Shown: positions 27,391 to 61,295 of the stretch, one piece after another
Numbering within the stretch: the first letter of the stretch is position 1
Layout: each line of letters begins with the position of its first letter
NCBI GenBank assembly: GCA_016839945.1
Contig: JAEOTE010000007.1
Coordinates: 21,959 to 85,958 of the forward strand
Direction: 5' to 3'
DNA length: 64,000 nt
Origin: Candidatus Heimdallarchaeota archaeon
GTDB lineage: Archaea; Asgardarchaeota; Heimdallarchaeia; Heimdallarchaeales; Heimdallarchaeaceae
The notes under the pieces: model-generated
The model's database searches: none
Told to the model about the DNA's origin: nothing
Seen by the model: the letters and a program-made list of their open reading frames with translations, nothing else
Made by a program: the position numbers and the translations under genes

Positions 27391-27418
27391 TATGTTATGT
27401 TGTTTTTATTTGAGAACT

Positions 27419-28147
27419 ATGGATAATGAAAAGGAAAAGAAGAAACAAGAGAAAGAAAAAACAGACTTTCGAAGTTCCTTATCAGATGCATATAAATCAT
27501 TAGACCAAGAGTTGGTTAAAGAGCAAGAACTAGATAAACAGAAGAAGCAAGAGATTATAGAAGAGGGAATAGAAAAGGTTGAAAAAGAATCTGGAAAAGA
27601 TTTAATCTCTTCAAAGCTGCTAACAGGTAAAATCTTGGAGTTGAGACAAAAAGCCGGTATGTCTCAAGCTATTGGGACTGCAGGTAAAGTAAAAACTCCA
27701 ATTCTATTTAAGAAAGATGAGTTTAAACAAAAATTGACAAGAGAATTACTAATTATTGGAATAGAGGAATTAGCAGACATTGGGGGGGCAATTACAATAC
27801 CTAACTTAGTAAATTATTTTAGAGAAACAAGACCTAACTGGAAAGTTAGAACAGGTGAGATTCTAGAAGTTCTGAAAGTTATGGAAAAGAAAGAGGTAAT
27901 TCCCAAAAGAATAGATATTGGTGAAGATGATGTTTTGATTAGATTCAAACCTATTGAGATGTCAGGAGATATACAAGACATTCTAAGATTAGCAACAGGA
28001 TTACCCTATCTCACTGTAGACAAAGTTACTTCTCATCTAGGATGGCCAATAGAAAGAGCCCAAAGTACTTTAACCGTAATGATGAAAATGGATTTAACAA
28101 TACTAGAAGAATCTACAGGAAATTATTATTTCCCAGGTATTGATTAA
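27419..28147 (+). CDS. ESCRT-II subunit Vps22/EAP30 (SNF8)-like protein: charged helical N-terminus plus tandem winged-helix domains
   Basis: Several segments parallel human SNF8/EAP30 as I recall it. ELLIIGIEELADIGGAITIPNLVNYF resembles ELGVQIIEVCLALKHRNGGLITLEEL. ILEVLKVMEKKEVIPKRIDIGEDDVLIRFKPIEMSGD resembles LIRAIKKLKALGTGFGIIPVGGTYLIQSVPAELNMD. ILRLATGLPYLTVDKVTSHLGWPIERAQSTL...GNYYFPG resembles VLQLAEKNGYVTVSEIKASLKWETERARQVL...EAHYWLP. Length is ~242 aa versus ~258 for SNF8. Confidence 0.65.
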   Translation: MDNEKEKKKQEKEKTDFRSSLSDAYKSLDQELVKEQELDKQKKQEIIEEGIEKVEKESGKDLISSKLLTGKILELRQKAGMSQAIGTAGKVKTPILFKKDEFKQKLTRELLIIGIEELADIGGAITIPNLVNYFRETRPNWKVRTGEILEVLKVMEKKEVIPKRIDIGEDDVLIRFKPIEMSGDIQDILRLATGLPYLTVDKVTSHLGWPIERAQSTLTVMMKMDLTILEESTGNYYFPGID

Positions 28148-34451: not shown

Positions 34452-35537
34452 ATGACGAAAAAAGTACGCGTAGCAATAGCAGGATTAGGAAATTGCGCAT
34501 CTGCTCTAATACAAGGTTTAGAATATTATAAAAATGCAGATCCTGAATCTGATTATATCCCAGGTATAATGCATGTAAAATTTGGTGATTATCACATTTC
34601 AGATGTAGAAATTGTTGCAGCTTTTGAAGTAAGTACACTTAAGATTGGAAAAGATATTTCAGAAGCAATTTGGGAAGAACCGAACTGCTGCAATAAGTTT
34701 TCAGATGTTCCATACAAGGAAGTAGAAGTATTACCAGGTCCTATTGAAGATGGTGTAGCACCTCATATGAAGGAATCTTTTCATTGTTATGATGAATCCA
34801 AAGTGCAAGCTGTAGACGTTACTGATGTTTTAAGAAAAACAGAAACTGATGTTTTAATCAATTTCTTACCTGTAGGTAGTGAAACAGCAACAAGAAGATA
34901 TGCTCAAGCTTGTTTAGATGCAGGAGTTGCCCTCGCAAATGGCATACCAGCATTTATTGCATCTGATCCTGAATGGGGTCAGAAATTTACTGATAAGAAT
35001 ATACCCATTGCTGGTGATGATATAAAATCTCAATTAGGAGCAACAATTTTACATAGAGTGTTAGTAGGATTAGCACATGATCGAGGTATTAAACTTGATG
35101 AAACTTTTCAGCTCAATATAGGTGGAAATACTGACTTTGAGAACATGAAAAAAGAGTATAGATTAACAACTAAAAGAATCTCAAAAACACAAGCAGTAAC
35201 AAGTATGATACCTTATGAAGTGCCTACAAGAATTGGACCATCAGATTATGTTCCATTTTTGGAGGATGAGAAGATTTGTTACTTATGGCTAAAAGGTAAG
35301 AATTTCGGGGAACAACCACTAACTGTTCAACTGAAACTTTCTGTTCAGGATTCACCTAACAGTGCTGGTGTTATGATTGATGTTGTACGTTCTTTAAAAA
35401 TTGCTAAGGATAGAGGTATAGGTGGTCCTTTAATTGGTGTTTCTAGCTATTTCTTCAAACACCCTCCCAAACAAATACAAGATTCTGAAGCATTCCAACT
35501 AGTCGAGAAATTCATTAAAGGAGAAATAACAAACTGA
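34452..35537 (+). CDS. myo-inositol-1-phosphate synthase (archaeal/bacterial short type), copy 1
   Basis: The N-terminal NAD-binding motif reads VRVAIAGLGNCASALIQG. Length of ~360 aa is typical of archaeal MIPS. Copy 2 follows immediately in tandem. Confidence 0.75.
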   Translation: MTKKVRVAIAGLGNCASALIQGLEYYKNADPESDYIPGIMHVKFGDYHISDVEIVAAFEVSTLKIGKDISEAIWEEPNCCNKFSDVPYKEVEVLPGPIEDGVAPHMKESFHCYDESKVQAVDVTDVLRKTETDVLINFLPVGSETATRRYAQACLDAGVALANGIPAFIASDPEWGQKFTDKNIPIAGDDIKSQLGATILHRVLVGLAHDRGIKLDETFQLNIGGNTDFENMKKEYRLTTKRISKTQAVTSMIPYEVPTRIGPSDYVPFLEDEKICYLWLKGKNFGEQPLTVQLKLSVQDSPNSAGVMIDVVRSLKIAKDRGIGGPLIGVSSYFFKHPPKQIQDSEAFQLVEKFIKGEITN

Positions 35538-35547
35538 GGTGAAATGA

Positions 35548-36618
35548 ATGGAAAACGATACTATTAAGGTTGCAATTGCTGGAGTTGGTAATGTTGCTTC
35601 AGGTTTAATTCAAGGAATAATCTACATGAGAGAGTATGAGGAAGAAAAAGAGAATCTACTTCACCCAAAAATCGGAAGTTACGAAACTAAGAACATTCAA
35701 ATTGTTGCTGCATTTGATGTTGATTCAAGTAAAGTAAACAAAGATTTGTCAGAAGCGATTTTCGTTCCAATAAACAGTACTCCACAATTTATTCAAGTTG
35801 AACATTTAGGTGTTGAAGTAGTTAAGGGACCAACTAAAGATGGGCTTTCTAAACATCTAAGACAAGTCATTCAAGTTGCTGAAACTGAAGAGGCAAACAT
35901 TGTAGAAATTTTACAAAAAACAGGAACAGAGATTCTTATCTGTGCCATTCCTACTGGTGCTGAAGAAGCAGTTAAGACTTATGCTCAAGCAGCTATAGAT
36001 GCTGAGGTTTCCTTTATTAACTGTACTCCAACAAGAATCGCTAGCAATCCTGCTTGGGCTAGAAAATTCAAACAAGCTAACGTTTGCGTAATCGGTGATG
36101 ATTTACAGTCTCTAGCAGGAGGAACAGTTCTTCATAAAGGATTTCTAGATGTTCTAAAAGAGCAAGGTGTTAAAATAAAAGACACATATCAATTAGATGT
36201 CTCTGGTGGTCTTGAAACTCTTAATACTCTTGATGATGACAGAAAACAATATAAAAGAAATATAAAGGAGCGTTCAATCCAAGAATCTGTAATAAACGAG
36301 ATCAATATTGCTAGTGGAACCTCTGATTATCTAGAGTTTCTAGGAAATAGAAGAATAGGGCACTTTTGGATTTTTGGTGAAGGATTTATGGGTATGCCAG
36401 TTAAAATTGATATAAGATTAGAAACACTTGATGGTCCAAATGCAGCTGGGACACTTATAGATGTCATAAGAGCCACAAAAATTGCTATTAACAGAGCTGG
36501 AAATGGTCCAATAAGCTCTATCTGTGCTTATGGATTTAAAGCTCCTCCAGTTACAACAGACAGACATACCTCACATCAATGGCTTAATGAATATTTAGAA
36601 GGAAAAAGAACAGAATAA
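35548..36618 (+). CDS. myo-inositol-1-phosphate synthase paralog, copy 2
   Basis: IKVAIAGVGNVASGLIQG and co-linear similarity to copy 1 throughout (VAAFDV..SKVNKDLSEAI vs VAAFEV..LKIGKDISEAI). The gap to copy 1 is 10 nt. Confidence 0.7.
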   Translation: MENDTIKVAIAGVGNVASGLIQGIIYMREYEEEKENLLHPKIGSYETKNIQIVAAFDVDSSKVNKDLSEAIFVPINSTPQFIQVEHLGVEVVKGPTKDGLSKHLRQVIQVAETEEANIVEILQKTGTEILICAIPTGAEEAVKTYAQAAIDAEVSFINCTPTRIASNPAWARKFKQANVCVIGDDLQSLAGGTVLHKGFLDVLKEQGVKIKDTYQLDVSGGLETLNTLDDDRKQYKRNIKERSIQESVINEINIASGTSDYLEFLGNRRIGHFWIFGEGFMGMPVKIDIRLETLDGPNAAGTLIDVIRATKIAINRAGNGPISSICAYGFKAPPVTTDRHTSHQWLNEYLEGKRTE

Positions 36619-36642: not shown

Positions 36643-37662
36643 TTAGAACTTAAGGGATTTTGTTATTTCTATAAGTTTAGCTCTTGGAATAGATTGAGGA
36701 AATTTCTTTAAAATTGATATTGCTTTCTCAACATACAGTGAGACTTTTGTTTTTAATGAATCAATTGATCCTGATTTGATTAGTATGTCTTTTATTTTGG
36801 TTGGAGAGAAATCTTCTTTTTCAAGATAGTATTTTTCTAGTATCTCTCTATCAGAATTTTCAGTTGTTTCAAAAGCTTTGAGAACTAGGAATGTCTGAAT
36901 TCTGTTTGTAATATCAGTCCAAACTCCTGATTTCCCTAATTCTTCTTCAGAAGACAATAAAGAGAGTATGTCGTCTCTAAGTTGAAATGCTCTACCAAAG
37001 TATATTCCAAAGTTTTTCATGAGCTCCCTATCTTCTTTGGTAGAATCTCCAATTATTACTCCAATTACTGATGCTGCTTCAAATAAACAAGAAGTTTTTC
37101 TGTCGATTAATTTTATAGCTTCATCCTTTAACATTTTTCTCTCCCCTTTCCTGAATTTTTCTTCAAGAAATAGGGAAGTGGATAATGTATGCAAAGCTTT
37201 GAGTAGTTCATCAACAACTTCCAAAACCTGAGTTTTTGTTGCTAGACTAAGGGCTAAACTACTCATTGAGTAAGACAAAGAAATTGCTGCAAAAGTTGAA
37301 AACTCAAGATAGAAGGACTTTTCTTTTCTTCTAAAAATATCCTTATCAAAGACATCATCAACTAAAAGTGTAGCGTTATGAATCACTTCTAAAGCACAGG
37401 CTGCTGCATAACTTATATCATTTCTTTCTTGCTTTGATATCATCTCAAATGAAAGAAGACAAATCAAAGGTCGTATTCTCTTACCGCCTTTCCTCAAAAT
37501 ATGATCAATAAGTTCAGTTATCTCTTCATCATAAGGACTTTGATCTCTAAGATTAGACAAATAAGAGTTAATTTGATTCACTTCTTCAGAGAAATCTAAG
37601 CTAGATTTAGGCACTAGTATCAACTTATAGCAACAATAGATGTAAAAAAACTTTTTGAACAA
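36643..37662 (-). CDS. idsA: Short-chain (E)-prenyl diphosphate synthase, probably geranylgeranyl diphosphate synthase
   Basis: The first aspartate-rich motif is LLVDDVFDKD and the second is FQLRDDILS. There is an unusual hydrophobic ~25-aa N-terminal extension (MFKKFFYIYCCYKLILVP). Confidence 0.8.
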   Translation of the reverse strand: MFKKFFYIYCCYKLILVPKSSLDFSEEVNQINSYLSNLRDQSPYDEEITELIDHILRKGGKRIRPLICLLSFEMISKQERNDISYAAACALEVIHNATLLVDDVFDKDIFRRKEKSFYLEFSTFAAISLSYSMSSLALSLATKTQVLEVVDELLKALHTLSTSLFLEEKFRKGERKMLKDEAIKLIDRKTSCLFEAASVIGVIIGDSTKEDRELMKNFGIYFGRAFQLRDDILSLLSSEEELGKSGVWTDITNRIQTFLVLKAFETTENSDREILEKYYLEKEDFSPTKIKDILIKSGSIDSLKTKVSLYVEKAISILKKFPQSIPRAKLIEITKSLKF

Positions 37663-37667
37663 AGTAA

Positions 37668-39161
37668 CTAGAAAAGTGATTCTCCCATAGATGAACAGAA
37701 TTCTAGAAAATTTACATTTAATACTAATAGAAGAATTATCATAAACAAAACAAGAATCAAAGATATATGAACTCCTGGTTCAACTGTTTTTTGTACATAT
37801 GGTTTCTCGAATGTTTCAAAGAACAAGGATTTGAGAACTCTTATCAAATAGATACTTGAAAAAGCTAACACTAATACATAAACAACAGATATGAGAATAA
37901 GATAATCACTAATAATCTTAAAGAGAAGAATTTCTGTTAAGAAACCTATTATTACAGGAAAAACAAACAGAAGTATAAAACTTGTTGAAACTATTATAGA
38001 AAGAACAATACGCATTTTTCCTATCCCTTTCAAGTCCTCAATGTTTTCTGAATCAAAACATTTTGACAAATAACTTACAGCAATTGAAGAAAATGAAAAT
38101 AATAGAACATATCCTATAAGATTCAATGAAAGATATTGCATAACTTGAAGTTGTTTTGGGTAGGACAGATATCCAGATAATGAGAAAGCTAGGATAAGAA
38201 AAATAGAACCAATATGAATCTGACTAATATAATGTAAGAGCTTCTTCAAATTTGGAACTGTAATTGAAGAAAACACACCCCATAAAGCTAATATGAAACC
38301 AATGATAATGAACAGCCAAATTAAGAGATTGATAATAGATGAATCTCTATTATTTACCGCTATTTTTACCATAAATGAGATACTAATCCCTTTTTGAATA
38401 ATGGTAAGAATGCTTGAGCTAGACATGTTATTATCATCCGTAAAACCTAATGACCAAAAGTGGAATGGTGGGAAACCTAATTGAATTAGAAGAGAAATTA
38501 CTATCAGGATTATACTCAAGTATTCCCAAATATTAAGGAATGCAGCCTCTAAAATGACTTCGAAACCATTCACAGCAATGAAATGACACGAAATTCCAAA
38601 GAAAAGCAATGTTAGTGATAACCCATTTAAGATTGTATAAGGTGAGATTATTTTTGTAAGCTTGTCTTCAGTAGCGTTCTGTAGATACCTGAAATAAATA
38701 TTGAGACCAGCATATAGAAGGATAAAACCAAAAAATATAACAAGCCAAGAATTTGAGGAGAAAATAAAGAATGAACTGGATTGCAAAACTAGAAGAGAAA
38801 TAAATGCAAAATAACTTCTTTCCGAATTTTTACTAGTTTCTACAATAGTTAGAAATTCAAGTAATATGATTCCAACACTAATTGCTAAGTAAATACCAGA
38901 GGAAAATGGATTAATTTCGAATACTTGTATTTCTGGAATACCATTTTCGAACGGAGTAAGAATGTATGAAAACAGAACAACAGATATGATAGAACATAAT
39001 ATAGAACAATAACCAAAAATGAGTCTCATTCGTCCCTGAAACACAACAAATTTCTTAGCTATTTTATGTGATAATAATCCTGTAGTCAGAATAAGGATTA
39101 TCCCTAAGAGTAGTAGCTCTAGATGCAAGTAGTTAAAGAAAATTGAAGAAATATAACTCAT
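37668..39161 (-). CDS. Complex-I NuoN / MrpD-like proton-conducting membrane transporter subunit (PF00361-like)
   Basis: About 14 TM helices. GFPPFHFW parallels the H-x-WLPDA region. KKLLHYISQIHIGSIFL parallels the K.LLAYSSI.H.G signature of NuoL/M/N-MrpA/D proteins. The protein is strongly divergent. Confidence 0.45.
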   Translation of the reverse strand: MSYISSIFFNYLHLELLLLGIILILTTGLLSHKIAKKFVVFQGRMRLIFGYCSILCSIISVVLFSYILTPFENGIPEIQVFEINPFSSGIYLAISVGIILLEFLTIVETSKNSERSYFAFISLLVLQSSSFFIFSSNSWLVIFFGFILLYAGLNIYFRYLQNATEDKLTKIISPYTILNGLSLTLLFFGISCHFIAVNGFEVILEAAFLNIWEYLSIILIVISLLIQLGFPPFHFWSLGFTDDNNMSSSSILTIIQKGISISFMVKIAVNNRDSSIINLLIWLFIIIGFILALWGVFSSITVPNLKKLLHYISQIHIGSIFLILAFSLSGYLSYPKQLQVMQYLSLNLIGYVLLFSFSSIAVSYLSKCFDSENIEDLKGIGKMRIVLSIIVSTSFILLFVFPVIIGFLTEILLFKIISDYLILISVVYVLVLAFSSIYLIRVLKSLFFETFEKPYVQKTVEPGVHISLILVLFMIILLLVLNVNFLEFCSSMGESLF

Positions 39162-39180
39162 CTTAATACACCTCTTCTAT

Positions 39181-41136
39181 TCATAAAATACTTCCTCCTA
39201 CATAGTATAACACAAATGTCAACAATATTACGAAAATGAATAGAGCTGCTAATTGAAGTTGTTTTCTTAACGAAGCTTGCTCAAGCTTAAGGAAAAATTT
39301 AGAAGTATTTACAAAAATTTTCTTGATAAATGGTCTTATATAATCAGTTAATGAAATTGAGATAGCAGAAATAATTTTAGAGATAAATTTGATAATATTT
39401 TTTGCAGCAATTTGATACAAAAATCCTGCAATGATGATATCATATGTCCAAACTGAGAGAGGTTTTATTATATTTAACCAAAACCAACTAGATGCATAGA
39501 ATATAAAATCAAAGTAATATATGGATCTAATTGTTTTTCTTGCAGGCGCAAAGAAATTAAGTATTTTCTTATTCAGATCTGCTAAGAATTTTGAACTTAT
39601 AAAATACAAAAGCAAGATTACAAAGTAAGAAACTATAAGTGGGATTACTGAGATAAGATAATCGCTAGCTAGCAAAATTATAACTGGAGCTATTGAATTT
39701 TGCAAGAAGAAAGTTGGGAAAAATGCACTTGTTAAGATGAGTATTAAAACAAGGGAGATAATTGTAAACTTATGATTAGAGCTTAATACCATTTCGTTCC
39801 TTTTCTTCCAAATCCTTCTTAAGAAAATCAAACAAATGAAGAAAACTATAACAAGTGTTAGAAGCCCTCCAGACAATAATCCTATTGGTGCTAAAAGATT
39901 TGTTGAATAGAAGGAATATGTAAGAGTGACTAAAACACTATTGAATGGAATTACGCCTAACAAAGGAAGCAGTGCTAGAACAATCGCTGAAAAAATAATC
40001 AATAAGCTGGAAATACCAGATTTAGCATTTTCTAATTTTTTATTTTCATTGATTTTTACTTGGATTGAAATAAGTATTAAGAGGATTCCAAAAACAAAAG
40101 GAAGTAGTGTCAATTGGTGAAGCGCAGCTGAATATAGTCCAGATCCTATAGAAAAGAAGATCAATCCTATAAATGAAGATTGTAGGAGATATATAATGTC
40201 ATATCCTTCGTTCAGAAAAACAGCTACAATTACTGAAAAAAGAGCTATGGCTAAACCAAACCAAATAATGAAGTTTCTAATAATATACATAATGTGAATA
40301 AATGGAGTACCGAAGAGAGTGAATAGCGAAAAGAGCATATAGATATTTAGTATTAGGAATAGCCATTCGTTATTCCCTTTACAAACTTCAGATTTCCAGT
40401 TATGAAATGGGAAAAGGGAGCATTTTATTATTATTCCTATAAGAAGCAAAATACAGAGGTTTCTAAAATAAGGATTTGAAAGTATAAATTTGAATATAAT
40501 GTCGTTATTGATTACTGAGAAATCAAAGGAATGAGACCTTCGAATTAATAATGCAATAGAGATGAATATAAAGATGTTTCCAAGAATGAAAGAAAAAACT
40601 AATGACTTGATTTTGTTCTTCTTCTGTTTTTGATCAAAAGTAGTTGAGAAATTAACGAAATCAATTATTAAAACATCTAGAACAAGATAAATTGCTAGAA
40701 ATTGTAGAAAATTAGGAGAAAAAATGAGAAGAATACCTATTGTAAAAATAAGAAATACTCTCTCCAAATGTTTTATCTCAAGTTTAGGATTGTTCAAAGC
40801 TAAGTAATTTAAAATAAAAGGGAGAGCTAAGAAAATTGTTGCATAAAAAACAACTTGAATCAAATCGATTCTAAAGCCAAACTCAATATTATATTGCTGA
40901 GATTCATAAAACTGAAAGATTGACAAAGGTTCTATTGTTGTCGTAAAATATGTATAAAGAAAGTATGAGACAAAGCTGATAGTAATTATTAGACTACAAA
41001 TCATATATGAATACAGGTAAAATTTCTTAAGCTTTTCACCATCAAAAAAGAATTTCAATAAAGTTATTCTTAAGATTGGGAATAACAAGAATAGACAAAT
41101 TTGGATTGTTAAAAGCAAGGCACTAATACTTATCAT
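39181..41136 (-). CDS. Complex-I NuoL / MrpA-like proton-conducting membrane transporter subunit, divergent
   Basis: At 651 aa and ~18 TM, LFPFHNWKSE (H-x-W) and YLLQSSFIGLIFFSIG (AYSSI.H.G-like) are present. Confidence 0.4.
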   Translation of the reverse strand: MISISALLLTIQICLFLLFPILRITLLKFFFDGEKLKKFYLYSYMICSLIITISFVSYFLYTYFTTTIEPLSIFQFYESQQYNIEFGFRIDLIQVVFYATIFLALPFILNYLALNNPKLEIKHLERVFLIFTIGILLIFSPNFLQFLAIYLVLDVLIIDFVNFSTTFDQKQKKNKIKSLVFSFILGNIFIFISIALLIRRSHSFDFSVINNDIIFKFILSNPYFRNLCILLLIGIIIKCSLFPFHNWKSEVCKGNNEWLFLILNIYMLFSLFTLFGTPFIHIMYIIRNFIIWFGLAIALFSVIVAVFLNEGYDIIYLLQSSFIGLIFFSIGSGLYSAALHQLTLLPFVFGILLILISIQVKINENKKLENAKSGISSLLIIFSAIVLALLPLLGVIPFNSVLVTLTYSFYSTNLLAPIGLLSGGLLTLVIVFFICLIFLRRIWKKRNEMVLSSNHKFTIISLVLILILTSAFFPTFFLQNSIAPVIILLASDYLISVIPLIVSYFVILLLYFISSKFLADLNKKILNFFAPARKTIRSIYYFDFIFYASSWFWLNIIKPLSVWTYDIIIAGFLYQIAAKNIIKFISKIISAISISLTDYIRPFIKKIFVNTSKFFLKLEQASLRKQLQLAALFIFVILLTFVLYYVGGSIL

Positions 41137-41401
41137 CTGTCATTCCTTCTTTTTTTAATGAGAATAATAGTTGATCTCTAAAAACAAAAATGAATATTAT
41201 CGAAAAAGCAACTAAACCAAGAATCACTAGAATAAAACTTTCAGCAGTAAAATTGACGCTAGAAATAATGAGTATTCCTGAAAGAAATATCAATAAAAAT
41301 CCGAATATTAACCTGAATTTTGTTTTAAAAAATAGCATTAGTAAAATGCCTAAAACAAAACAAATGAATGATATTGCAATTACATAATTCAGGAATACCA
41401 A
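41123..41401 (-). CDS. Small 3-TM membrane protein (possibly MrpC/NuoK-like)
   Basis: 92 aa with three hydrophobic helices, overlapping both neighbours within the operon. No firm motif was found. Confidence 0.25.
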   Translation of the reverse strand: MVFLNYVIAISFICFVLGILLMLFFKTKFRLIFGFLLIFLSGILIISSVNFTAESFILVILGLVAFSIIFIFVFRDQLLFSLKKEGMTDDKY

Positions 41402-42084
41402 GATTCTTCAGCTCTTTTTTGATTGTTTGACCTAAAATCTAATGCAAGATAAATTGACATAATGATTAAGAAAACTAGTATAATAATTGAAAAAATAATT
41501 AGATTATTATTTTTGTCAAAAATATCAATTAACGAGTCTCCTTCAATCCAGACATTGAAAAATCCAGCAGATGAAGAAAATAAGATACTACATATGAGAA
41601 TTACTGGAATAATCACTAATCCTAGTATTATCAAGTTAATGAAAAAATCAAGAGTGATTTTCGAGGTTTTCTTATCTTTGACTGGTTGTTCTTTAAATAG
41701 AGAATAAATTCCAACAGATAGAAAAAGTATGTAGGAAAAGACTAAAGTTGCATAAAACATTATTTTTTGATTAAAAGACAGAAAAATAAAAGAGAAAGAA
41801 ATGAAGGCGAATAACAACAATAAAGATCTATTCTTAGATTGTAACAATAATGCTCGTAAAGTAAAACTTATTCCGAAAATTGATCCAAAGTAAAAGAATA
41901 GATCTTCTCCATTTATTACGAATAAAATAATCATTACAACAAGAGAAATAATTAATGAACTCTTAATGATGAGCCAATATTTCTTTTTTAATTTTGTTAA
42001 GTTTGGAATCACTATAATTAGAATCAATAAAAATCCACATATCGACACTAGTAATGTGGAGAGATCAAGCAAGATTCCAAACAT
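41389..42084 (-). CDS. Polytopic membrane protein (6-7 TM), unknown; possibly an accessory subunit of the antiporter-like module
   Basis: A hydrophobic 231-aa protein within the operon, with no recognisable motifs. Confidence 0.3.
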   Translation of the reverse strand: MFGILLDLSTLLVSICGFLLILIIVIPNLTKLKKKYWLIIKSSLIISLVVMIILFVINGEDLFFYFGSIFGISFTLRALLLQSKNRSLLLLFAFISFSFIFLSFNQKIMFYATLVFSYILFLSVGIYSLFKEQPVKDKKTSKITLDFFINLIILGLVIIPVILICSILFSSSAGFFNVWIEGDSLIDIFDKNNNLIIFSIIILVFLIIMSIYLALDFRSNNQKRAEESWYS

Positions 42085-42140
42085 TTCAAACCATAAAAGT
42101 ATAAAGAAAAGAAGGATAAAAACCTTTAGGAATCTTGTTA

Positions 42141-42935
42141 TCAGGAATTAGGTTTTCTTTTCTTCCGTTTCTTAAATTTGTTAAATATTAGAAAGGTTAT
42201 GGTTACAATCATCAGGAAACTTATAGTATTGCTGAAAAAGCTTGTCTCCAAAAGTTCCTCGATTAAATTGCTTGAAGTAAATAGTGGAACTGAAATGTTA
42301 TAACCTGGGAAACCTGGCATTTCTGGGTAAAGAGGATTATCGTCTCCAAAAGTTGTGAAGTTACCTAAAGTATAATTTAGACCATAATCTATTCTATACT
42401 GAAGATTTGCACCTGTATATTTTGTTAGATTTACATAATAAATTGGAGTGTTAAAATCTAATACAGAGGCATAAGAAGAATAATCAGGATCAGGATAGTA
42501 TAGTACTTCCCACTTTGCTGGGGATCCGTCAGGTATTCTTAATCTCCATCTTGCATTGACTGTAATTTTATATAAATTGATTTGTGCTGTAGTATAGTTT
42601 AGATGTGATGTATCAACAAAAGTGTTACCATAAAAGCCATAGTAAACATCTGTTTCTTCATCTTCGTCTGTATCCAAACCAAGTAAACCAAAATATAGGT
42701 TTGGTCTTTCATATCCTCCTACTGATTCATTCAAACCCATTTCTTCTCTTTCATTAGGTCCAATGATTATAAATCTGTTTTCGTCACCCGTAACTCTCAT
42801 ATGGCCTTCGAAATCCCAGATGTCTTCCTCTTCTTCGTCTTCTTGAGCATAGGAAATTAAAGATACAGCACTGAACATTGACACTATCATAATTGTTGAT
42901 AAGAAAATACTAAGCCATATTATCTTTGTTTTCAT
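42141..42935 (-). CDS. Secreted/cell-surface protein with N-terminal signal peptide, many N-glycosylation sequons and a C-terminal TM helix plus KR-rich tail (sorting-signal-like), paralog B
   Basis: The signal peptide is MKTKIIWLSIFLSTIMIVSMFSAVSLISYA. The C-terminus reads ...ISFLMIVTITFLIFNKFKKRKKRKPNS. It shares the GNFTTFGDDNPLYPEMPGF block with the upstream paralog. Confidence 0.55.
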   Translation of the reverse strand: MKTKIIWLSIFLSTIMIVSMFSAVSLISYAQEDEEEEDIWDFEGHMRVTGDENRFIIIGPNEREEMGLNESVGGYERPNLYFGLLGLDTDEDEETDVYYGFYGNTFVDTSHLNYTTAQINLYKITVNARWRLRIPDGSPAKWEVLYYPDPDYSSYASVLDFNTPIYYVNLTKYTGANLQYRIDYGLNYTLGNFTTFGDDNPLYPEMPGFPGYNISVPLFTSSNLIEELLETSFFSNTISFLMIVTITFLIFNKFKKRKKRKPNS

Positions 42936-43759
42936 CTTTTTCTCCTCCTTTTCGTGTAAACAAGCGTATAAATTGCAATGATAGTTGAAAACGATATTAT
43001 AACAGACAAAAATGGAAAACCAACGCTAAAACTATGAGTTCGTGGTAAAGATGAACGTTCAACGTTTTCTGCTACAGTTAAATTATAAAATGGCCATTCA
43101 TATGCAGTTGTGTTTCTTTCATTAGTGAATGCAGGTAATGGATTCTCTGGTCCATATGTTGTAAAATTACCATTGACAAGAGTACCATCTTCATAAATTA
43201 TTTGCCAAAAACCAACAGGGCCTACAACCAGTGTAAAATCAACTAAATGAACTGGGAATCTTAAATCCGAACCAGTCCAGATTTCTGGTAAAGTTACAAG
43301 TGGTGAATCTAATTTATCTACAATTTGGTCATAGATATCTTGAGTTTTATTATCAAAAGTACCTACATTTGCAGGTGTTATATCCTTCCATTCTAATCCA
43401 CTTGCTTCATTAATAGCAAAACTATAATTACCTCCATTTCCTTGAACTTTTGTTTCTTCAAAGAAATCGGAGAAACTGGGAGCATTTCTGATCGATTGTA
43501 TTCCATAGAGAGCCACTATAATATCTACAAGGCCATCATCAGTTTGATCTAAAGCATACACAAAAGTGCGAATTCTAAAAGGATCCTCGATCAAACTTGG
43601 GATTGCAATTTGACGGTGTTTTGGGTAATGTCTTACACCAGTATATGCCCATTCAATTTCGTCATACAATCCTGCTTGCAAATTGGGTGTAATAAAGAAC
43701 ATTGGTACCATTAGTGAAAAAATTATTATTGAACACATTATTTTGGATAATCTCAACAT
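42932..43759 (-). CDS. Secreted/cell-surface protein, paralog A of the downstream gene, with signal peptide and C-terminal TM plus KR tail
   Basis: The signal peptide is MCSIIIFSLMVPMFFITPNLQA. The C-terminus reads ...FPFLSVIISFSTIIAIYTLVYTKRRRKR. The block VNGNFTTYGPENPLPAF matches paralog B. There is a 4-nt overlap with the next gene. Confidence 0.55.
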   Translation of the reverse strand: MLRLSKIMCSIIIFSLMVPMFFITPNLQAGLYDEIEWAYTGVRHYPKHRQIAIPSLIEDPFRIRTFVYALDQTDDGLVDIIVALYGIQSIRNAPSFSDFFEETKVQGNGGNYSFAINEASGLEWKDITPANVGTFDNKTQDIYDQIVDKLDSPLVTLPEIWTGSDLRFPVHLVDFTLVVGPVGFWQIIYEDGTLVNGNFTTYGPENPLPAFTNERNTTAYEWPFYNLTVAENVERSSLPRTHSFSVGFPFLSVIISFSTIIAIYTLVYTKRRRKR

Positions 43760-43896
43760 CTTTCCTCCAAATCAACTCTCTACAACTAAGGTTTAAGTGA
43801 CATTTATAAAGATTATTGAATTGAGTAGATAATAGGATTAGCGTTGTTTCATCATAACTCTTAAATCGTTTAAAAAAATCCTTGAACTAGGAACCC

Positions 43897-50576: not shown

Positions 50577-53500
50577 ATGTATTGGGGAACTCTAGATTAT
50601 GAGTACAGATATGTGAGGTTTATGACTAAGAAATTTCCGTATGAGCTTTGGTTATCTGCAGGAAGTGATGCAGGTATTAGTTTTGCCACAGTTGGCCGTC
50701 TAGCTAAAGATTCAAGCATGATGCAAGGGATTCTACTTTCCCTTCAAAATCTAATGTCTACAGAAGTAGATGTTTCTAATTCACAATTTATGACAGGAGA
50801 GAATGAGTTTGTAAAATTTGGTACTTTTACACTTGCAGAAGAAGCAGATAATGTTGTTGTTCAATATATCGTTAAATCCGAACAAGCAAAGAAATTGTCC
50901 AAATATGATGAAGAACTTGTTCAAGAGTTAGCTCAGTCATTCTGTAGATTCATAATATTAACACCCAATTTCCATCAAAACATATCTGCTGGAAAAATGA
51001 TATCTCCTGATTATGTATCAAAAGCGTTCCTAAAAGCATGTACTATTACTAAACAAAAAATTAGTGTCCCTACAAATAACAAGGATTTGGGTGAGCTAAT
51101 AAAGAAACATATAGAGATTATAGAACAAAATCCGGAGAATTATGAAACATTAGTACAATTAAAAGACATTAAACAATGGTTAGGGGATGATGAACAGTCT
51201 TGGGATAAAGGTTCAATTATACCATTCAAAAGACAACTTCTTGTTCAAATGGTTTCTCAAGATATATTAAACCAAATAATTAGAGAGGATCCTTTTGTTC
51301 TCTTAGAGTTTGAATCCCCCAGATATGTGGTGGAGGAAATTCGAAATAGTATTGAAAATTATTTAAGAAAGAAAGACATCAAACCTCAAGATTTAATAGA
51401 AAGATATCTAGCAAAAGATTTGTCAAAAATTGTTAGAACAAACCTTGAAAGATTAACAATCGATGAAATACATTCTGCCAATTCCTTTATATCTAACATT
51501 CTAGCAAAGGAAGTAATATACAAAATTGCTAAAGAAAAACCTCTAAATTCTTTAATTGATTTTAGAGATATTCCCCTCTTTAGTACAATTCAAAAAACTA
51601 TAACCACACTAACAGAGATTCCTAACCCTGGAACAATGATATGTGATGCACTTATTGAGGATGTATCACCTTTAGTACTACAAAGTGGAAGACTTTTCTA
51701 TAATCAATTAATAAATCCATTTACTGGAAAAAAACTTCCCCCAAGTATTTGGAATGTGATAATAGATTTTACATATGCAATAATTGAAGAAAAGAAAATT
51801 AAAAGTAAAGAAGAAGGGAGAGAAACGTCTATACAAGTAAAAAGAAATCTTCTAAACAATCGTCTAGCAAAATTAACAGTAATTCAATCAGAATGGCTGA
51901 AGGAATTAACTATAAAATTTAAGGAAGTAGGTGTAGGAAGAGAGCTTCGATTATCTAATGTTGAAGAATCTGTCTTATTTGCAAACGCATTGGAAAGAGC
52001 AATAATCACCACTTTGGAGAAAATAGTCAAAGATCAACTATTTAATACAAACCTAGGAGATATCTTTAATTTCATGATTGATACATTCAAAGATCTAGCT
52101 CCTAAGACGGTTTTAGCTAAAATAATATCCAATGTAATGAATGATGTTAAAGAAAGAAAATATGAAACTGCTCAACAAATGAGTATGAGCGCTCAAGATC
52201 TTATTGGAGCATCAATTGAAGAAGGAGATGTGAAAGCTTTTGTGAATTCAGTTCCTGTTCAATTGAAAAGATCTTTCTTTAGAGGAACAAATCTCAGTTT
52301 TGATGGAAGAACTGTATCTTCTTCTGAATTATTACAGAAAAAAGGAGTTTCTATAAGTATAGGTAACAAAATAATGCCTCTAAACGATTTTGAAGCAGAT
52401 GCAGAATTTCTATCAACTTGTTTTACAAACTCTAAAATATTACGTAAAGCTTATGCTAAAGCCATATTGAGGGGGATGATTGAATCTTATGTACAACAGA
52501 TTTTTAATTTTGAAGGTGAGATAATAGGAAGACTTGACTCTTTAATAACTGCTTTTAATAAAGAAATGGTTTCGAAATTGACACCTGCTCATAGGTTGCT
52601 TGAAATAAAAGAAAGTTTCCCTTCTTTCCCTCAAATACGGGATATTCCACAAAAATTTGCTGAAAGAAATTTTCATGATCGTTGTCGTGATAGTTGGAAT
52701 CTTTATGCACCTAAAATTCAAAAAGCAATCCAAGATATACTAAATGGTTTCTCTAAGCTACGTACAAAGGATTTAAACTATAAGAAAAAAGCTATGAAAC
52801 TGTATAGTAAAGCTATAAAAGATCTAAAATATGTTCGAAAAATTCTTCTTAAAAGCTGGAATCCCCTCAATAATCAAATGACCAAAGTTGTTGAAAAATG
52901 GTCAAAAGATGTAAGTGCTAAGCTTTCAGCTCATCTAGATTTTGTTGATCGCAATGTTAATGATTGGATTAGTGATGTTTTCAAGATTAATAGACTAGAA
53001 TATGGCCGTTTTACAATTTCACATGAGCAAAGTCAAAAACAAATAATTGAAACTCTCAATGAAATCAACCCTAGAGAGATAGCGGAATTACCTAAGAATT
53101 TCATGGAGATTGCTATATCAATTCTGCTTTATCGTCGAATACCTGAGTATGTTATAGATGAATCATACAACCAAATGATATCTGGAGAAAGGAAAGTTGC
53201 TGATGCTGTATTAAAAGCATGGAGTAAAAGCAAATCCAGAAATGAGTTTGAGGATAACCTTTACATGAACATGAGGGTTTTAGGAAATACTTTTACTAGA
53301 ATGATTAATACATACGGGAGATTAGTAAGCTCGTTATTTATTCAAGATGATATTGCTTTATCCAGTGATATCAAAGGTTATTACATAGTATTAGGATCAT
53401 TCACAAAGGATGTATATACTACAAAAAATCATGTGTTATCTATCTTAAGATTCCTGAATGTTGAAGTTATAGATTTAGGAGAAGATTGGGAAGTCAGACT

Positions 53501-53768
53501 GTACTTAGAACCTGAATACAAGAAAGAGATGAGTGAGTACAGAGACCGTTTAATTGTTATGAGTGATTTAGTAGGTTTCGTTGCTCGTAAGAAGTTTGAT
53601 GAAAATACAGGTCCTGTACTAGAAGGAATAAAATCAGCTATTAATTATTTAATTGAACATGGAGACACCAACATTATAGACCTAGCAGAAACAATTAAAG
53701 AAGCACTCTTTATGCTATCAGAATATCCTACAAAAGTATTAGAGGAAAAACAACAACAAAAACAATGA
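50577..53768 (+). CDS. Large (1063 aa) soluble protein of unknown function; N-terminal ~120 aa may adopt a roadblock/longin-like alpha-beta fold, remainder predicted helical
   Basis: A long uninterrupted ORF with coding-like composition. There are no TM segments, no Walker A/B, and no low-complexity repeats. The N-terminus reads ELWLSAGSDAGISFATVGRLAKDSSMMQGILLSLQNLMSTEV...EFVKFGTFTLAEEADNVVVQYIVK. The true start may be the internal ATG at MTKKF (aa 16). Confidence 0.5.
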   Translation: MYWGTLDYEYRYVRFMTKKFPYELWLSAGSDAGISFATVGRLAKDSSMMQGILLSLQNLMSTEVDVSNSQFMTGENEFVKFGTFTLAEEADNVVVQYIVKSEQAKKLSKYDEELVQELAQSFCRFIILTPNFHQNISAGKMISPDYVSKAFLKACTITKQKISVPTNNKDLGELIKKHIEIIEQNPENYETLVQLKDIKQWLGDDEQSWDKGSIIPFKRQLLVQMVSQDILNQIIREDPFVLLEFESPRYVVEEIRNSIENYLRKKDIKPQDLIERYLAKDLSKIVRTNLERLTIDEIHSANSFISNILAKEVIYKIAKEKPLNSLIDFRDIPLFSTIQKTITTLTEIPNPGTMICDALIEDVSPLVLQSGRLFYNQLINPFTGKKLPPSIWNVIIDFTYAIIEEKKIKSKEEGRETSIQVKRNLLNNRLAKLTVIQSEWLKELTIKFKEVGVGRELRLSNVEESVLFANALERAIITTLEKIVKDQLFNTNLGDIFNFMIDTFKDLAPKTVLAKIISNVMNDVKERKYETAQQMSMSAQDLIGASIEEGDVKAFVNSVPVQLKRSFFRGTNLSFDGRTVSSSELLQKKGVSISIGNKIMPLNDFEADAEFLSTCFTNSKILRKAYAKAILRGMIESYVQQIFNFEGEIIGRLDSLITAFNKEMVSKLTPAHRLLEIKESFPSFPQIRDIPQKFAERNFHDRCRDSWNLYAPKIQKAIQDILNGFSKLRTKDLNYKKKAMKLYSKAIKDLKYVRKILLKSWNPLNNQMTKVVEKWSKDVSAKLSAHLDFVDRNVNDWISDVFKINRLEYGRFTISHEQSQKQIIETLNEINPREIAELPKNFMEIAISILLYRRIPEYVIDESYNQMISGERKVADAVLKAWSKSKSRNEFEDNLYMNMRVLGNTFTRMINTYGRLVSSLFIQDDIALSSDIKGYYIVLGSFTKDVYTTKNHVLSILRFLNVEVIDLGEDWEVRLYLEPEYKKEMSEYRDRLIVMSDLVGFVARKKFDENTGPVLEGIKSAINYLIEHGDTNIIDLAETIKEALFMLSEYPTKVLEEKQQQKQ

Positions 53769-58409: not shown

Positions 58410-61295
58410 TTATTTTCTTCGTTTTGTAAATATTACTGCACTTGCTACAGCTGCGAAACCAATGATGCTTAGAATAGAAGCAATACCAAATTCAGAGATT
58501 ACTGGTAAGCTTGATGGTCCTAAAACATAATCTAGAGTTGGAGGACTTGCAAAGTTAGCACTAACAAGTATTTCGAGGTATGCTTGTAATATACCTGCTC
58601 CGCTCATACCATAATCAGGAACAGTTGTTATTTCAAAGTCGAAACTTGTTTTTAATCCAGCACCTAGAACTACACCTGAGTTATAATCTACAACAACCCA
58701 TATGTAACCTCTGATAAATCCATCAATGATTGTATTTTCCCACTCATAGTCTCCATTTAAAGCATCCCATTCGATGTCAGCTTCGGTATCTATTGTTATA
58801 TAATAATACATAACATCCATACCAGTTGTATAATGATAACTATCAACTTGAGCATCTATTAGTAATTGTGTAATTAAGAAGTTGGTATTTATAACATCTA
58901 GAGCATTGAATGCATCTACGAAGTAGTCTGTAGCTCCCAGCATCGAGTTAGCCGTTACTACTAAACCATCATAGTAATTCCAATCAGGTATGACATGGAA
59001 TCCCATTGGACTAAACATTGGGTAAGTCACCGTAGATTCATATGGTGTTGCCAAAGGATCTAATGGATCATACATGGTGTAATTAGCTTTTGCCCATAAT
59101 CCTTCATAATCCAACATTTCAACTCCTAGAGTTGGATGTCCTATTGAGCTTAAAGCTTGTGTCTTAAAGTTCTTTACGCTATCAATGAAATCTGTAGGTG
59201 CTAATGGTGGTGCATTATAATAGAATATAACATTATCAAATAAATAAGTCCATGAGCTTGGCGATGGTAAGCTTGGTGTATAAGGAGTATCGGTTTTCGC
59301 ATCGTCTAATTCCAGTGTTATATTGAACCAAACATCTGAAACTGCGTAGTAGTCCATACTTGCTGTTACATTGAGAAGTTTTCCTGTTGTTGTATTATAA
59401 CCCCAGTATACATCTTGTGTTAATTGAGCATCAGACATATTCATATGCATTTCAAAAAGACAGTATTGATTCGCAACATCATATGTTGTGTTGAATCCAG
59501 GTTGTCCTGTTGAATCATTCTTGGCTACATCAAAAGTGTCAAATTGTACCCAATCGGTGTCACTTGCATCGAAGGTTTGGAATGGAACAAATCGTTCACT
59601 GAATGGCCAATAGTCATATGCGCCCCACCAAAATTCGTACTCATGATATTCAGAGATTGCGAAATTTAGGTCAGTGAACATTGTTATATCAATAGGAATT
59701 GCAGGTAATATTGAGTTAGCTAAGAATGAGAATTGAAAGTCTGGAAGTGTCATGTTATAGAATGGTCCATTACTCCATGTCCAATCTAAAGCACTAGGAC
59801 TGTTTACTAATGATTCATAAAGGTAACCATTTGGATATCCTTCAAGATATTGTTGTTCATAAATCCAATTAGCTCCCATTTCATAAGGATCAGTAGTACT
59901 TGGGGAGTAAGGTAGAATAATTAAAGGAGTTTCTGGTAAACTGTTGTAGGAATCATAAGCTCCTTCAGCAAATCCATCAAAATATCCTTCTTCTCTGTAG
60001 CTGGACATACCCCATTGGTATTGTTCTCCTGCAGTTGTAAGATCAAATCCATCATCATAAGCAGCCAAGTAACCTTCTTGTATTCCATTATTATATCCTG
60101 ATTCCCATGCATCCCGAGGATCATAGAAATAAGGATCAGGTGGTGGAAACCAAGTTGTATATCTTGGATTTGCGGAGAGTCGATCGTTTTCTCCATTCCA
60201 ATAACCATTGTAATGATAGTATCCATCGTGATAACCATCAGCATAACCAACAGGCCAATTATTCCATGCATTGTTGTATAAGTCATTATACAGCATTTCA
60301 TTGAAATATAATTGAGCTCCTTCATATAGATATCCTGCAGCATAATAATCTTCGTAAAAACGAGGATAATATTGCCATCTTGCATAGCTATTCATATCAG
60401 TTATTGCTGGTGGAGCTGGAGCTTTTTTATCTGGTATTCTATCTGTAATGAAATCTGTTTGACCAGTGGTGAAACCATCACCTCTTGCATCAAAGAATCC
60501 AGTATAGAATCCATCTAAAGCAACTTGAGCGTCAAACCATAAGGGATTGTTGCTACTAAATTCACAACCCCAGTGTCCTATATCATACCCAATAACTTCT
60601 CCTAAATCGTAAGCAAAATCACCAAGTTGATATTCACCATAATGATAAGGTCTTGGCCATTCATTTCTGGGTGGCCAATATCCAAAAGAATTGTTATAAT
60701 CATACCAACCATTGTCAAAATTTGGCATGAATGAGGCGTTAAAGTTTGACCAGAAAACACTTGAAGTTACATTGTCTATAAAATTACTTCGTGGCCAGGT
60801 TTCCCAATAGAAATGAATATCTGTTTTTGCGAAATCATCTGGAAAGCTAAATTGAGATACATTTGCATAAAAACCAAAATCATCATATAGATTTAGAAAT
60901 CCAATTGCTTGCAAAACAGTTTCACTTATACCATCATGATATCCATGAGTTTCATTCCACTTATACAAAGGAATGTTATCCATAGCGCTGATAAGAATTT
61001 CAATTTCGCTCCCTTCTAAACTGTTTATGAGACCAAAATCAAAATCTGGAACCTCTTCAGGTAGCATCATTCTTAGAAGATCAAAGGCAGCTGAGCCCCA
61101 ATCAAATTGTGATATATTATAAAACAAATGTGCACCTGGTTCTACAGGTCCATAATCAGGTTTTATGTTGCCAGGTAATGTAGAATTATCTTTTGCCATC
61201 ATAGCGTTTGGTGTTATAAGTGGCAGTAAAATTATCAATAAGCCTATACTTAAAATTTTATTTTTCATATTTGAACCCCTAAGGAATTCTAACAT
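58410..61295 (-). CDS. Large (961 aa) cell-surface protein: signal peptide, aromatic/acidic low-complexity repeat region, C-terminal TM helix and basic tail
   Basis: The N-terminal signal peptide reads MKNKILSIGLLIILLPLITPNAMMA. The central region is extremely rich in Y/W/D/N/G with recurring motifs such as GYHDGYYHYNGYWNG, GYNNGIQEGYLAAYDDGFD and YFDGFAEGAYDSY. Many N-x-S/T sequons are present. The C-terminus is ...PVISEFGIASILSIIGFAAVASAVIFTKRRK. Confidence 0.6.
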   Translation of the reverse strand: MLEFLRGSNMKNKILSIGLLIILLPLITPNAMMAKDNSTLPGNIKPDYGPVEPGAHLFYNISQFDWGSAAFDLLRMMLPEEVPDFDFGLINSLEGSEIEILISAMDNIPLYKWNETHGYHDGISETVLQAIGFLNLYDDFGFYANVSQFSFPDDFAKTDIHFYWETWPRSNFIDNVTSSVFWSNFNASFMPNFDNGWYDYNNSFGYWPPRNEWPRPYHYGEYQLGDFAYDLGEVIGYDIGHWGCEFSSNNPLWFDAQVALDGFYTGFFDARGDGFTTGQTDFITDRIPDKKAPAPPAITDMNSYARWQYYPRFYEDYYAAGYLYEGAQLYFNEMLYNDLYNNAWNNWPVGYADGYHDGYYHYNGYWNGENDRLSANPRYTTWFPPPDPYFYDPRDAWESGYNNGIQEGYLAAYDDGFDLTTAGEQYQWGMSSYREEGYFDGFAEGAYDSYNSLPETPLIILPYSPSTTDPYEMGANWIYEQQYLEGYPNGYLYESLVNSPSALDWTWSNGPFYNMTLPDFQFSFLANSILPAIPIDITMFTDLNFAISEYHEYEFWWGAYDYWPFSERFVPFQTFDASDTDWVQFDTFDVAKNDSTGQPGFNTTYDVANQYCLFEMHMNMSDAQLTQDVYWGYNTTTGKLLNVTASMDYYAVSDVWFNITLELDDAKTDTPYTPSLPSPSSWTYLFDNVIFYYNAPPLAPTDFIDSVKNFKTQALSSIGHPTLGVEMLDYEGLWAKANYTMYDPLDPLATPYESTVTYPMFSPMGFHVIPDWNYYDGLVVTANSMLGATDYFVDAFNALDVINTNFLITQLLIDAQVDSYHYTTGMDVMYYYITIDTEADIEWDALNGDYEWENTIIDGFIRGYIWVVVDYNSGVVLGAGLKTSFDFEITTVPDYGMSGAGILQAYLEILVSANFASPPTLDYVLGPSSLPVISEFGIASILSIIGFAAVASAVIFTKRRK

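Follow-up and report, generated by a model that had tools for sequence, protein, structure and literature searches.

What do genes for antiporter-like membrane proteins do in an archaeon when no other respiratory gene is encoded nearby? Such subunits are normally assumed to translocate ions within complex I, hydrogenases or Mrp. The question is raised by a 64-kb stretch of a Candidatus Heimdallarchaeota genome (contig JAEOTE010000007.1; ~31% G+C, archaeal gene content; the whole stretch is called the window below), in which four adjacent minus-strand genes (37668-42084) encode membrane proteins of 231, 92, 651 and 497 amino acids (aa). These genes are preceded by two for secreted paralogs, A and B, and followed by one for a prenyl diphosphate synthase. 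A preliminary description, made from the letters of the window, had listed seven minus-strand open reading frames (ORFs) of 275, 264, 231, 92, 651, 497 and 339 aa (5' to 3'), separated in longest-ORF calls by -4, 56, -13, -14, 19 and 5 nt, and its coordinates, strand, lengths and junctions were reproduced exactly. It had read the seven genes as one tight operon for an envelope/ion-translocation assembly; the observation is partly confirmed here and the interpretation partly supported. We consider it somewhat probable that the four membrane genes form an autonomous operon and that this operon is a relic of the membrane arm of complex I or of a group-4 hydrogenase, exapted and probably no longer pumping.

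Homology and gene order of the four membrane proteins

A Pfam scan of the six proteins other than the synthase returned nothing significant. For the 651-aa protein (L-like; 39181-41136, minus strand) and the 497-aa protein (N-like; 37668-39161, minus strand), the antiporter family PF00361 gave no match at E ≤ 1, and their homology was therefore drawn from NCBIfam, Protein Data Bank (PDB) and family profiles. The N-like protein matched the NCBIfam NuoN model TIGR01770 over its full length (E 1e-17; 64 bits, below the cut-off of 333), and the L-like protein matched the NuoL models, likewise over its full length (E 1e-4; 21 bits, below the cut-off of 556). Both also align to PDB chains (ND2, NuoL). 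With family profiles the similarity became significant over the 14-transmembrane-helix (14-TM) core of the antiporter-like superfamily: the N profile matched solved NdhB, Nad2 and NuoN at E values of 1e-20 to 5e-18 (NdhB 1e-20), MbhH at 6e-16 and MrpD at 5e-10, and the L profile matched solved NdhF at 4e-21 and NuoL/ND5 at ~1e-11. Judged by these profiles, the two proteins are real, very divergent homologues of NuoL/ND5 and NuoN/ND2, as the preliminary description had proposed. Its placement of the module in the complex I/Mrp superfamily also stands; within that superfamily, the NuoN and NuoL scores exceed those of MrpD and MrpA and thus point to complex-I-type proteins.

The two smaller proteins were compared in the same way. 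The E. coli nuo operon was fetched and the four family hidden Markov models (HMMs) were scored against its six membrane subunits. The highest score of each HMM fell on the subunit in the corresponding position (J 16.2, K 5.0, L 29.8 and N 41.6 bits), and the order 231-92-651-497 accordingly mirrors nuoJ-K-L-(M)-N. For the 231-aa protein (41389-42084, minus strand), a polytopic protein of about seven helices, the 16.2 bits to NuoJ compare with at most -1 for the other five subunits. Residues 61-172 align to NuoJ 2-117 in a weak profile match, and the protein has two N-terminal helices more than NuoJ. For the 92-aa protein (41123-41401, minus strand), which has three helices and overlaps its neighbours by 13 and 14 nt, the 5.0 bits to NuoK compare with at most -8.6 for the rest. 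No Pfam family matched more of its members than PF00420 (6 of 16, best E 0.0037, below threshold), and its top PDB matches were MbhD, NdhE and ND4L, all non-significant. These scores weakly suggest a NuoK/ND4L-like protein. Of the profile comparisons proposed for this locus, that with PF00420 was thus only weakly positive and that with PF00361 negative, and no cluster protein matched a Pfam or NCBIfam model of MrpB, E, F or G; the operon holds four membrane genes only.

The two small genes are joined by an unusual junction. The 231-aa protein has at its C-terminus a conserved EE.WY motif whose codons overlap the start of the 92-aa gene: within the overlap (41389-41401), W-Y-S-stop shares its letters with M-V-F-L in all lineages. 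Both peptide motifs are conserved across the family, and the start of the 92-aa gene is TTG in the window and ATG in most relatives. This co-encoding suggests translational coupling.

At the other end of the L-like protein, a C-terminal extension is collinear with the NuoL models, which reach residue 609 of 651 (profile position 620 of 630), and a FD..F/Y..P motif is present in this region. The profile of the isolated C-terminal segment found no PDB match and no significant match to the C-terminus of E. coli NuoL. From the collinearity, we infer that the segment would have inherited the clamp or scaffold role of the NuoL lateral helix.

Residue loss, selection and distribution

Key residues of the E. 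coli subunits were mapped onto the family HMM alignments. In the N-like family, NuoN E133 is replaced by V/I/L and K217 by Q/L/N/F, K395 is variable (E/Q/N/S/F/R), and K247 (as K/R) and H224 are retained. In the L-like family, NuoL E144 is replaced by L/A/I/S, with an invariant Asp (D154) following; K229 (K238 of the L-like protein) and the PFH motif are retained, and hydrophobic or small residues occupy all the positions of H254, H334, H338, K342, K399 and D400. The 92-aa family has nothing equivalent to NuoK E36 and E72. As far as this alignment-dependent mapping goes, the conserved charged axis of the superfamily (TM5 Glu, TM7 Lys, TM8 Lys/His, TM12 Lys/Glu) is mostly gone, and the antiporter signature motifs are vestigial, as had been described.

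A more drastic loss was found in three genomes of the genus Heimdallarchaeum (loci L010, L029 and L030, L029 being the complete genome of Ca. Heimdallarchaeum endolithica PR6, CP084167), in which the whole L core is absent. In its place stands a separate gene for a protein of 120-151 aa that can be aligned to the final ~100-130 residues of the 651-aa protein (HMM E-value 1e-7 to the L C-terminal segment; P45, S98, E105 and Q112 invariant). Because full-length L is present in two divergent branches, the group of the window and locus L032, the deletion is most likely secondary. With most canonical charged residues lost and the L core dispensable in one genus, the ion translocation envisaged earlier for this module appears doubtful.

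These losses are not those of decaying genes. Between the window and two close relatives, the ratio of nonsynonymous to synonymous substitution rates (dN/dS) of the six non-synthase genes was 0.11-0.31, and that of the synthase, both inositol-phosphate synthases, the ABC genes, PIN, KaiC and HMG-CoA reductase (HMGR) was 0.01-0.08. The synthase itself, at 0.05-0.06, evolves like a housekeeping gene. The six genes are thus real and under a shared, relaxed purifying regime to which the synthase does not belong. A pseudogene relic was rejected, as the ORFs are intact wherever a locus is long enough to contain them and dN/dS lies well below 1.

The module has a narrow distribution. An exhaustive HMMER search of 1.84 billion representatives, started from the N-like protein, gave only 358 matches at E ≤ 1e-3 and 17 at E ≤ 1e-10, and the N-like family comprises about a dozen clusters (~12) with 19-79% identity among these representatives. 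The named members are annotated in NCBI as 'hypothetical protein' from Heimdallarchaeota. Related loci were collected with an alignment of the B family, the N family having no sufficiently conserved stretch; a word-index search with an alignment of distant members recovered one family member. Among the 19 species genomes with B, all are labelled Heimdallarchaeota except one metagenome-assembled genome labelled Thorarchaeota. The relatives include AB_125 and PR6, and the family is confined to Heimdallarchaeaceae. The exceptional genome, GCA_048883065.1 (isolate QM1B.68; loci L004 and L011), was deposited as 'Candidatus Thorarchaeota archaeon', the only relative so labelled. Its loci are the closest to the window, colinear and with 88-95% protein identity, and the label is probably wrong.

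Synteny, surface glycoproteins and transcription units

The recurrence of the gene order in relatives was borne out by 17 further loci with a complete membrane set. Most loci are colinear over ~25 kb: POR, ABC2 and ABC1 lie on one strand and A, B, the 231-aa, 92-aa, L and N genes and the synthase on the other, followed by the two myo-inositol-1-phosphate synthase genes (MIPS2, MIPS1) and then an epimerase, PIN, KaiC and HMGR. In the window and ~20 other loci, the membrane genes are immediately preceded by A and B. Three rearranged loci are more telling. In PR6 (L029), the segment from the epimerase to HMGR lies upstream in inverted orientation and MIPS1 is now followed by the ABC genes, with A-B, the membrane genes, the synthase and MIPS2-MIPS1 remaining together. 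In L030, the membrane genes, synthase and both MIPS genes are together and A-B lie 5 kb off on the other strand, divergent from ABC1-ABC2. In L032, the membrane genes directly follow ABC1 and neither A nor B is found within 10 kb. As the membrane genes (four, or 3+1), the synthase, MIPS2 and MIPS1 stayed in one block through all three rearrangements, these genes make up the invariant unit. A and B are frequent neighbours, and the linkage to secreted proteins described before is not obligatory. Just upstream of A in L029, transposase- or integrase-like ORF fragments were read by eye from the translations (6641-7587); they sit exactly at the point of rearrangement relative to the other genomes.

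Paralogs A (42932-43759, minus strand, 275 aa) and B (42141-42935, minus strand, 264 aa, overlapping A by 4 nt) are indeed paralogous, as had been proposed. BLASTP related them weakly (E 2e-4), and hhalign gave a probability of 98.2% (E 5e-14, 184 columns), with the homology spanning almost the entire ectodomain. Each begins with a signal-like helix, ends with a TM helix and a polybasic tail and has conserved N-x-S/T sequons, by which both are predicted to be type I surface glycoproteins, their glycosylation being suggested by the sequons. Paralog A has a beta-rich ectodomain, an invariant juxtamembrane motif NVERSSLPRTHS and a C-terminal RRRKR tail. It had no Pfam or NCBIfam match, and its AlphaFold2 (AF2) model (pLDDT 75, pTM 0.68, beta-rich) had no significant fold match in PDB or BFVD. 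Paralog B is better conserved than A (motifs GLDTDxD, YYGFYG, WRLRIP, WEVLYYPDP and NFTTFG) and is preceded by an AGGAGG Shine-Dalgarno sequence. In the genus Heimdallarchaeum, B carries a PKD-like insertion of ~180 aa, a block of PKD/Ig-like repeats that follows the signal peptide, precedes the conserved domain and enlarges B to 449-476 aa (L029 9206-10555, L010 4-1227, L030 16782-18209), as expected for a surface-exposed protein. The C-termini had been likened to archaeosortase substrates, a comparison without HMM support: NCBIfam PGF-CTERM models gave no match at E ≤ 1, A and B contain no PGF motif, and no archaeosortase or exosortase domain is encoded in the window. The motif, TM helix and Arg/Lys tail fit an ordinary type I anchor as well.

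Conserved promoter-like elements divide the seven genes. Window genes such as HMGR, KaiC and POR typically carry an A-rich/T-rich box resembling a B recognition element (BRE) and TATA box ~22-30 nt before the start, and within the units proposed here genes overlap or carry Shine-Dalgarno sequences. Upstream of A, a BRE/TATA-like element 'CAATAATCTTTATAAATGTCA' (43798-43818, minus strand) precedes a GGAGG Shine-Dalgarno sequence (43764-43768); the element is nearly identical in ~20 orthologous loci, in which the A protein is only 43-51% identical. A second element, 'CCTAAAGGTTTTTATCC' (42114-42130, minus strand), lies ~30 nt upstream of the 231-aa gene within the 56-nt spacer after B. Its footprint 'CCAAAnnTTTTTAT' is conserved in all 12 aligned loci, among them L030 and L032, where the element must act as a promoter because the 231-aa gene there follows a divergent intergenic region. 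A third, 'CAAAAAGTTTTTTTAC' (37642-37657, minus strand), stands between the stop of the N-like gene and the synthase start. A motif 'CAA(T/A)AAGTTTTT..' was found 21-28 nt before the synthase start in 15 of 15 loci, with the related variants 'CAATAAGTTTTT' or 'AATAACTTTxT', and the T7 run of this element could also terminate the upstream operon. A sigma-70 promoter and intrinsic-terminator scan gave counts at shuffle level, its models being uninformative for an archaeon. Given conserved elements above A, the 231-aa gene and the synthase, the region probably comprises three transcription units, A-B, 231-92-651-497 and the synthase, in place of the tight seven-gene operon first described. The conservation above A runs past the TATA box (43791-43810, minus strand; 'TATAAATGTCAYTTnAAC'), exceeding what a core promoter needs, and may include an operator or initiator element.

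The start of the synthase (36643-37614, minus strand) bears on this division. Its longest ORF begins at TTG 37662 (339 aa); the orthologues, called at 320-325 aa, start 16 codons later, at the position of GTG 37614. The latter (323 aa) is the most likely start, and the 5-nt gap before the synthase is therefore an artefact of ORF calling, replaced by a 53-nt spacer that holds the conserved promoter-like element. The gene is probably a separate, leaderless transcription unit. Its product is the sole cluster protein matching Pfam (PF00348 polyprenyl_synt, 5e-47, above cut-off), and its best NCBIfam match is GGPP_syn NF041003 (148 bits, equivalog cut-off 500). The earlier assignment as geranylgeranyl diphosphate (GGPP) synthase thus stands at family level and not at the level of the equivalog: the protein is a trans-prenyl diphosphate synthase with GGPP as its probable product. 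The supposed coupling of the module to isoprenoid synthesis finds no echo in the dN/dS values given above.

Interpretation and genomic surroundings

Known systems delimit what the module could be. With the membrane arm of complex I (NuoJ/K/L/N; Nqo10-14; ND6, ND4L, ND5, ND2) it shares the J-K-L-(M)-N order, nearly full-length homology of the L and N families to NuoL/NdhF and NuoN/NdhB, the PFH motif, one TM7/TM8 lysine and an L-like C-terminal extension collinear with the NuoL models. It differs in that NuoM is missing, neither NuoA/H nor a peripheral arm is nearby, the axis charges are mostly lost, neither PF00361 nor any curated cut-off is reached and the L core can be deleted. The Heimdallarchaeum variant, with one antiporter-like subunit, a separate clamp-like protein and small K/J-like subunits, resembles MbhH, MbhI and MbhG/D/E of the MBH and MBS complexes; the module, however, has no hydrogenase module nearby and no MrpE/F/G-like MbhA-C, and no solved chain was found to resemble its clamp protein. 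Mrp (Mnh/Sha/Pha) likewise combines antiporter-like subunits with a NuoK-like subunit and has no redox module alongside, but the module lacks MrpB, E, F and G, its similarity to MrpD/MrpA is much weaker, and the catalytic Lys and Glu are lost; with the accessory subunits absent, a canonical Mrp was rejected. DabAB/MpsAB and the cyanobacterial Cup-NdhD/F systems show that PF00361-type proteins can serve outside complex I together with partners specific to a lineage. The DabAB/Cup systems keep their ion-path residues and a cytoplasmic carbonic-anhydrase-like partner, whereas the module has extracytoplasmic glycoprotein neighbours and a degraded path. A CO2-hydration module of this type was rejected, there being no DabA/CupA-like partner. 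No description of the present module was found in the literature searched. The superfamily is known; what is new is the joint occurrence of three features, a J-K-L-N order that stands alone, an axis with degraded residues and an L core that can be dispensed with.

If the four-gene operon is a reused membrane arm, its proteins would pack as in the distal arm of complex I. The J-like and K-like subunits would abut the 14-TM N-like subunit, and the L-like subunit would lie distally, with its C-terminal extension running back as a clamp. Such a clamp role would explain why this segment survives as a separate protein of 120-151 aa after deletion of the L core. The assembly would act as a membrane scaffold that no longer pumps, or retains a single path at most, and was exapted for a role in the membrane or envelope; A/B upstream and the synthase downstream would be neighbouring transcription units under their own conserved putative promoters.

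Several points weigh against this reading. Buried charges are still conserved (D154 and K238 of L, K257 of N, E54 of the 92-aa protein and D61 of the 231-aa protein), leaving room for a residual ion path, and the mapping of residues on such divergent TM proteins may slip by a few positions outside PFH. The NuoJ-like identity of the 231-aa protein is weak and, taken alone, non-significant: at E < 10 its family profile matched in PDB only E. coli NuoJ (E 0.4-0.8), its members gave a weak Pfam match to TgpA_N instead of PF00499, and its single-sequence AF2 model (pLDDT 62) was too poor for a Foldseek comparison. The promoters are recognized from conserved motifs alone, and colinearity over ~25 kb across the family makes arguments from adjacency weak in either direction. 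Complex-I-like hydrogenases with shortened membrane arms have been reported for Heimdallarchaeaceae (10.1101/2024.07.04.601786), and the module could thus still dock to a complex encoded elsewhere.

This last possibility can be made specific: the module might be a detached distal arm, a divergent and separately encoded extension of the heimdallarchaeial complex-I-like group-4 [NiFe] hydrogenase with its shortened arm. That its closest solved homologues are complex-I-type NuoN and NuoL and that the L C-terminal clamp is retained would agree with this, but its own J-like and K-like proteins would then duplicate those of the proximal arm, the coupling residues of the N-like protein (TM5 Glu, TM7 Lys, TM12 Lys) are lost, the module evolves 2-5 times faster than housekeeping genes, and it is never adjacent to nuoA/B/C/D/H/I in the loci examined. 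We regard it as quite unlikely. For the AB_125 clade, NADH dehydrogenase is missing from the inventory of an earlier survey (10.1101/2020.10.19.343400). NuoB/D, NuoI, NuoH and NuoA were found neither in the window nor within 10 kb on either side of the related loci examined, and Pfam and annotation scans of the window showed no respiratory or hydrogenase subunit besides the cluster, in agreement with the preliminary description. Still less probable is a minimal Mrp-like cation/proton antiporter that remains active through non-canonical residues. J, K, L and N are the core common to Mrp and complex I, the genes are under purifying selection, and the conserved charges of L and N and the acidic residues of both small proteins could carry ions; yet no MrpB/E/F/G-like protein is among the cluster proteins, NuoN/NuoL outscore MrpD/MrpA in the profile comparisons by 10 orders of magnitude, the axis has lost most of its residues and one genus has deleted the L core.

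The assembly originally envisaged, in which A and B are physical partners of the antiporter-like module and the whole is coupled to isoprenoid synthesis, draws on the position of A-B directly upstream in so many loci, on PR6, where A-B stayed with the module and not with the ABC genes, on the relaxed dN/dS class and narrow taxonomic range that A, B and the membrane genes share, and on the invariance of the block from the membrane genes through the synthase to MIPS2-MIPS1. Against it stand the separate conserved promoter-like elements, L032 with no A/B near the module, L030 with A/B on the other strand and still paired with the ABC genes, and the housekeeping-like evolution of the synthase; physical contact is purely hypothetical, and we hold this assembly to be unlikely. 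About equally tentative is the proposal that the distal arm, deprived of its redox partner and its pumping residues, was kept in Heimdallarchaeaceae as a new membrane machine with the lineage-specific A/B pair, for instance as an envelope anchor or as a transmembrane conformational relay using the one charged path left. If true, this would be the first 'pseudo-antiporter' complex with extracellular partners. The reading of the four genes as an exapted, probably non-pumping relic, which we prefer, bears on how respiratory modules are dismantled and reused and on the evolution of complex-I-like systems in Heimdallarchaeia, the class that includes the closest known relatives of eukaryotes. A weak NuoN/NuoL match of the kind found here should not count as respiration in metabolic reconstructions of Asgard archaea. 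The locus also offers a natural experiment on which parts of a membrane arm are structurally indispensable, the candidates being the L C-terminal clamp and the N-like core.

The window also encodes HMGR, KaiC, MCM, GINS and NurA/HerA, and no tRNAs or Rfam RNA families were found in it. The two tandem MIPS paralogs (34452-36618, plus strand) are convergent with the prenyl synthase, and together with the epimerase, HMGR and an MsbA-like ABC pair they hint at a neighbourhood of lipid or envelope biogenesis. Two large ORFs of 1063 and 961 aa (50577-53768, plus strand, and 58410-61295, minus strand) have no Pfam match at E ≤ 1e-4, and a ~1050-aa counterpart, also without Pfam matches, occurs in the related loci L007 and L030. 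The MCM helicase gene (1905-5549, plus strand, 1214 aa) is split by an intein with a LAGLIDADG homing-endonuclease domain (Intein_splicing, residues 444-948; LAGLIDADG_3, residues 674-752). An ESCRT-II EAP30/Vps22-36-like protein (27392-28147, plus strand) places a eukaryotic-signature gene near the cluster, and an Arf/Ras-family small GTPase lies at the edge of the related locus L032 (1-119).

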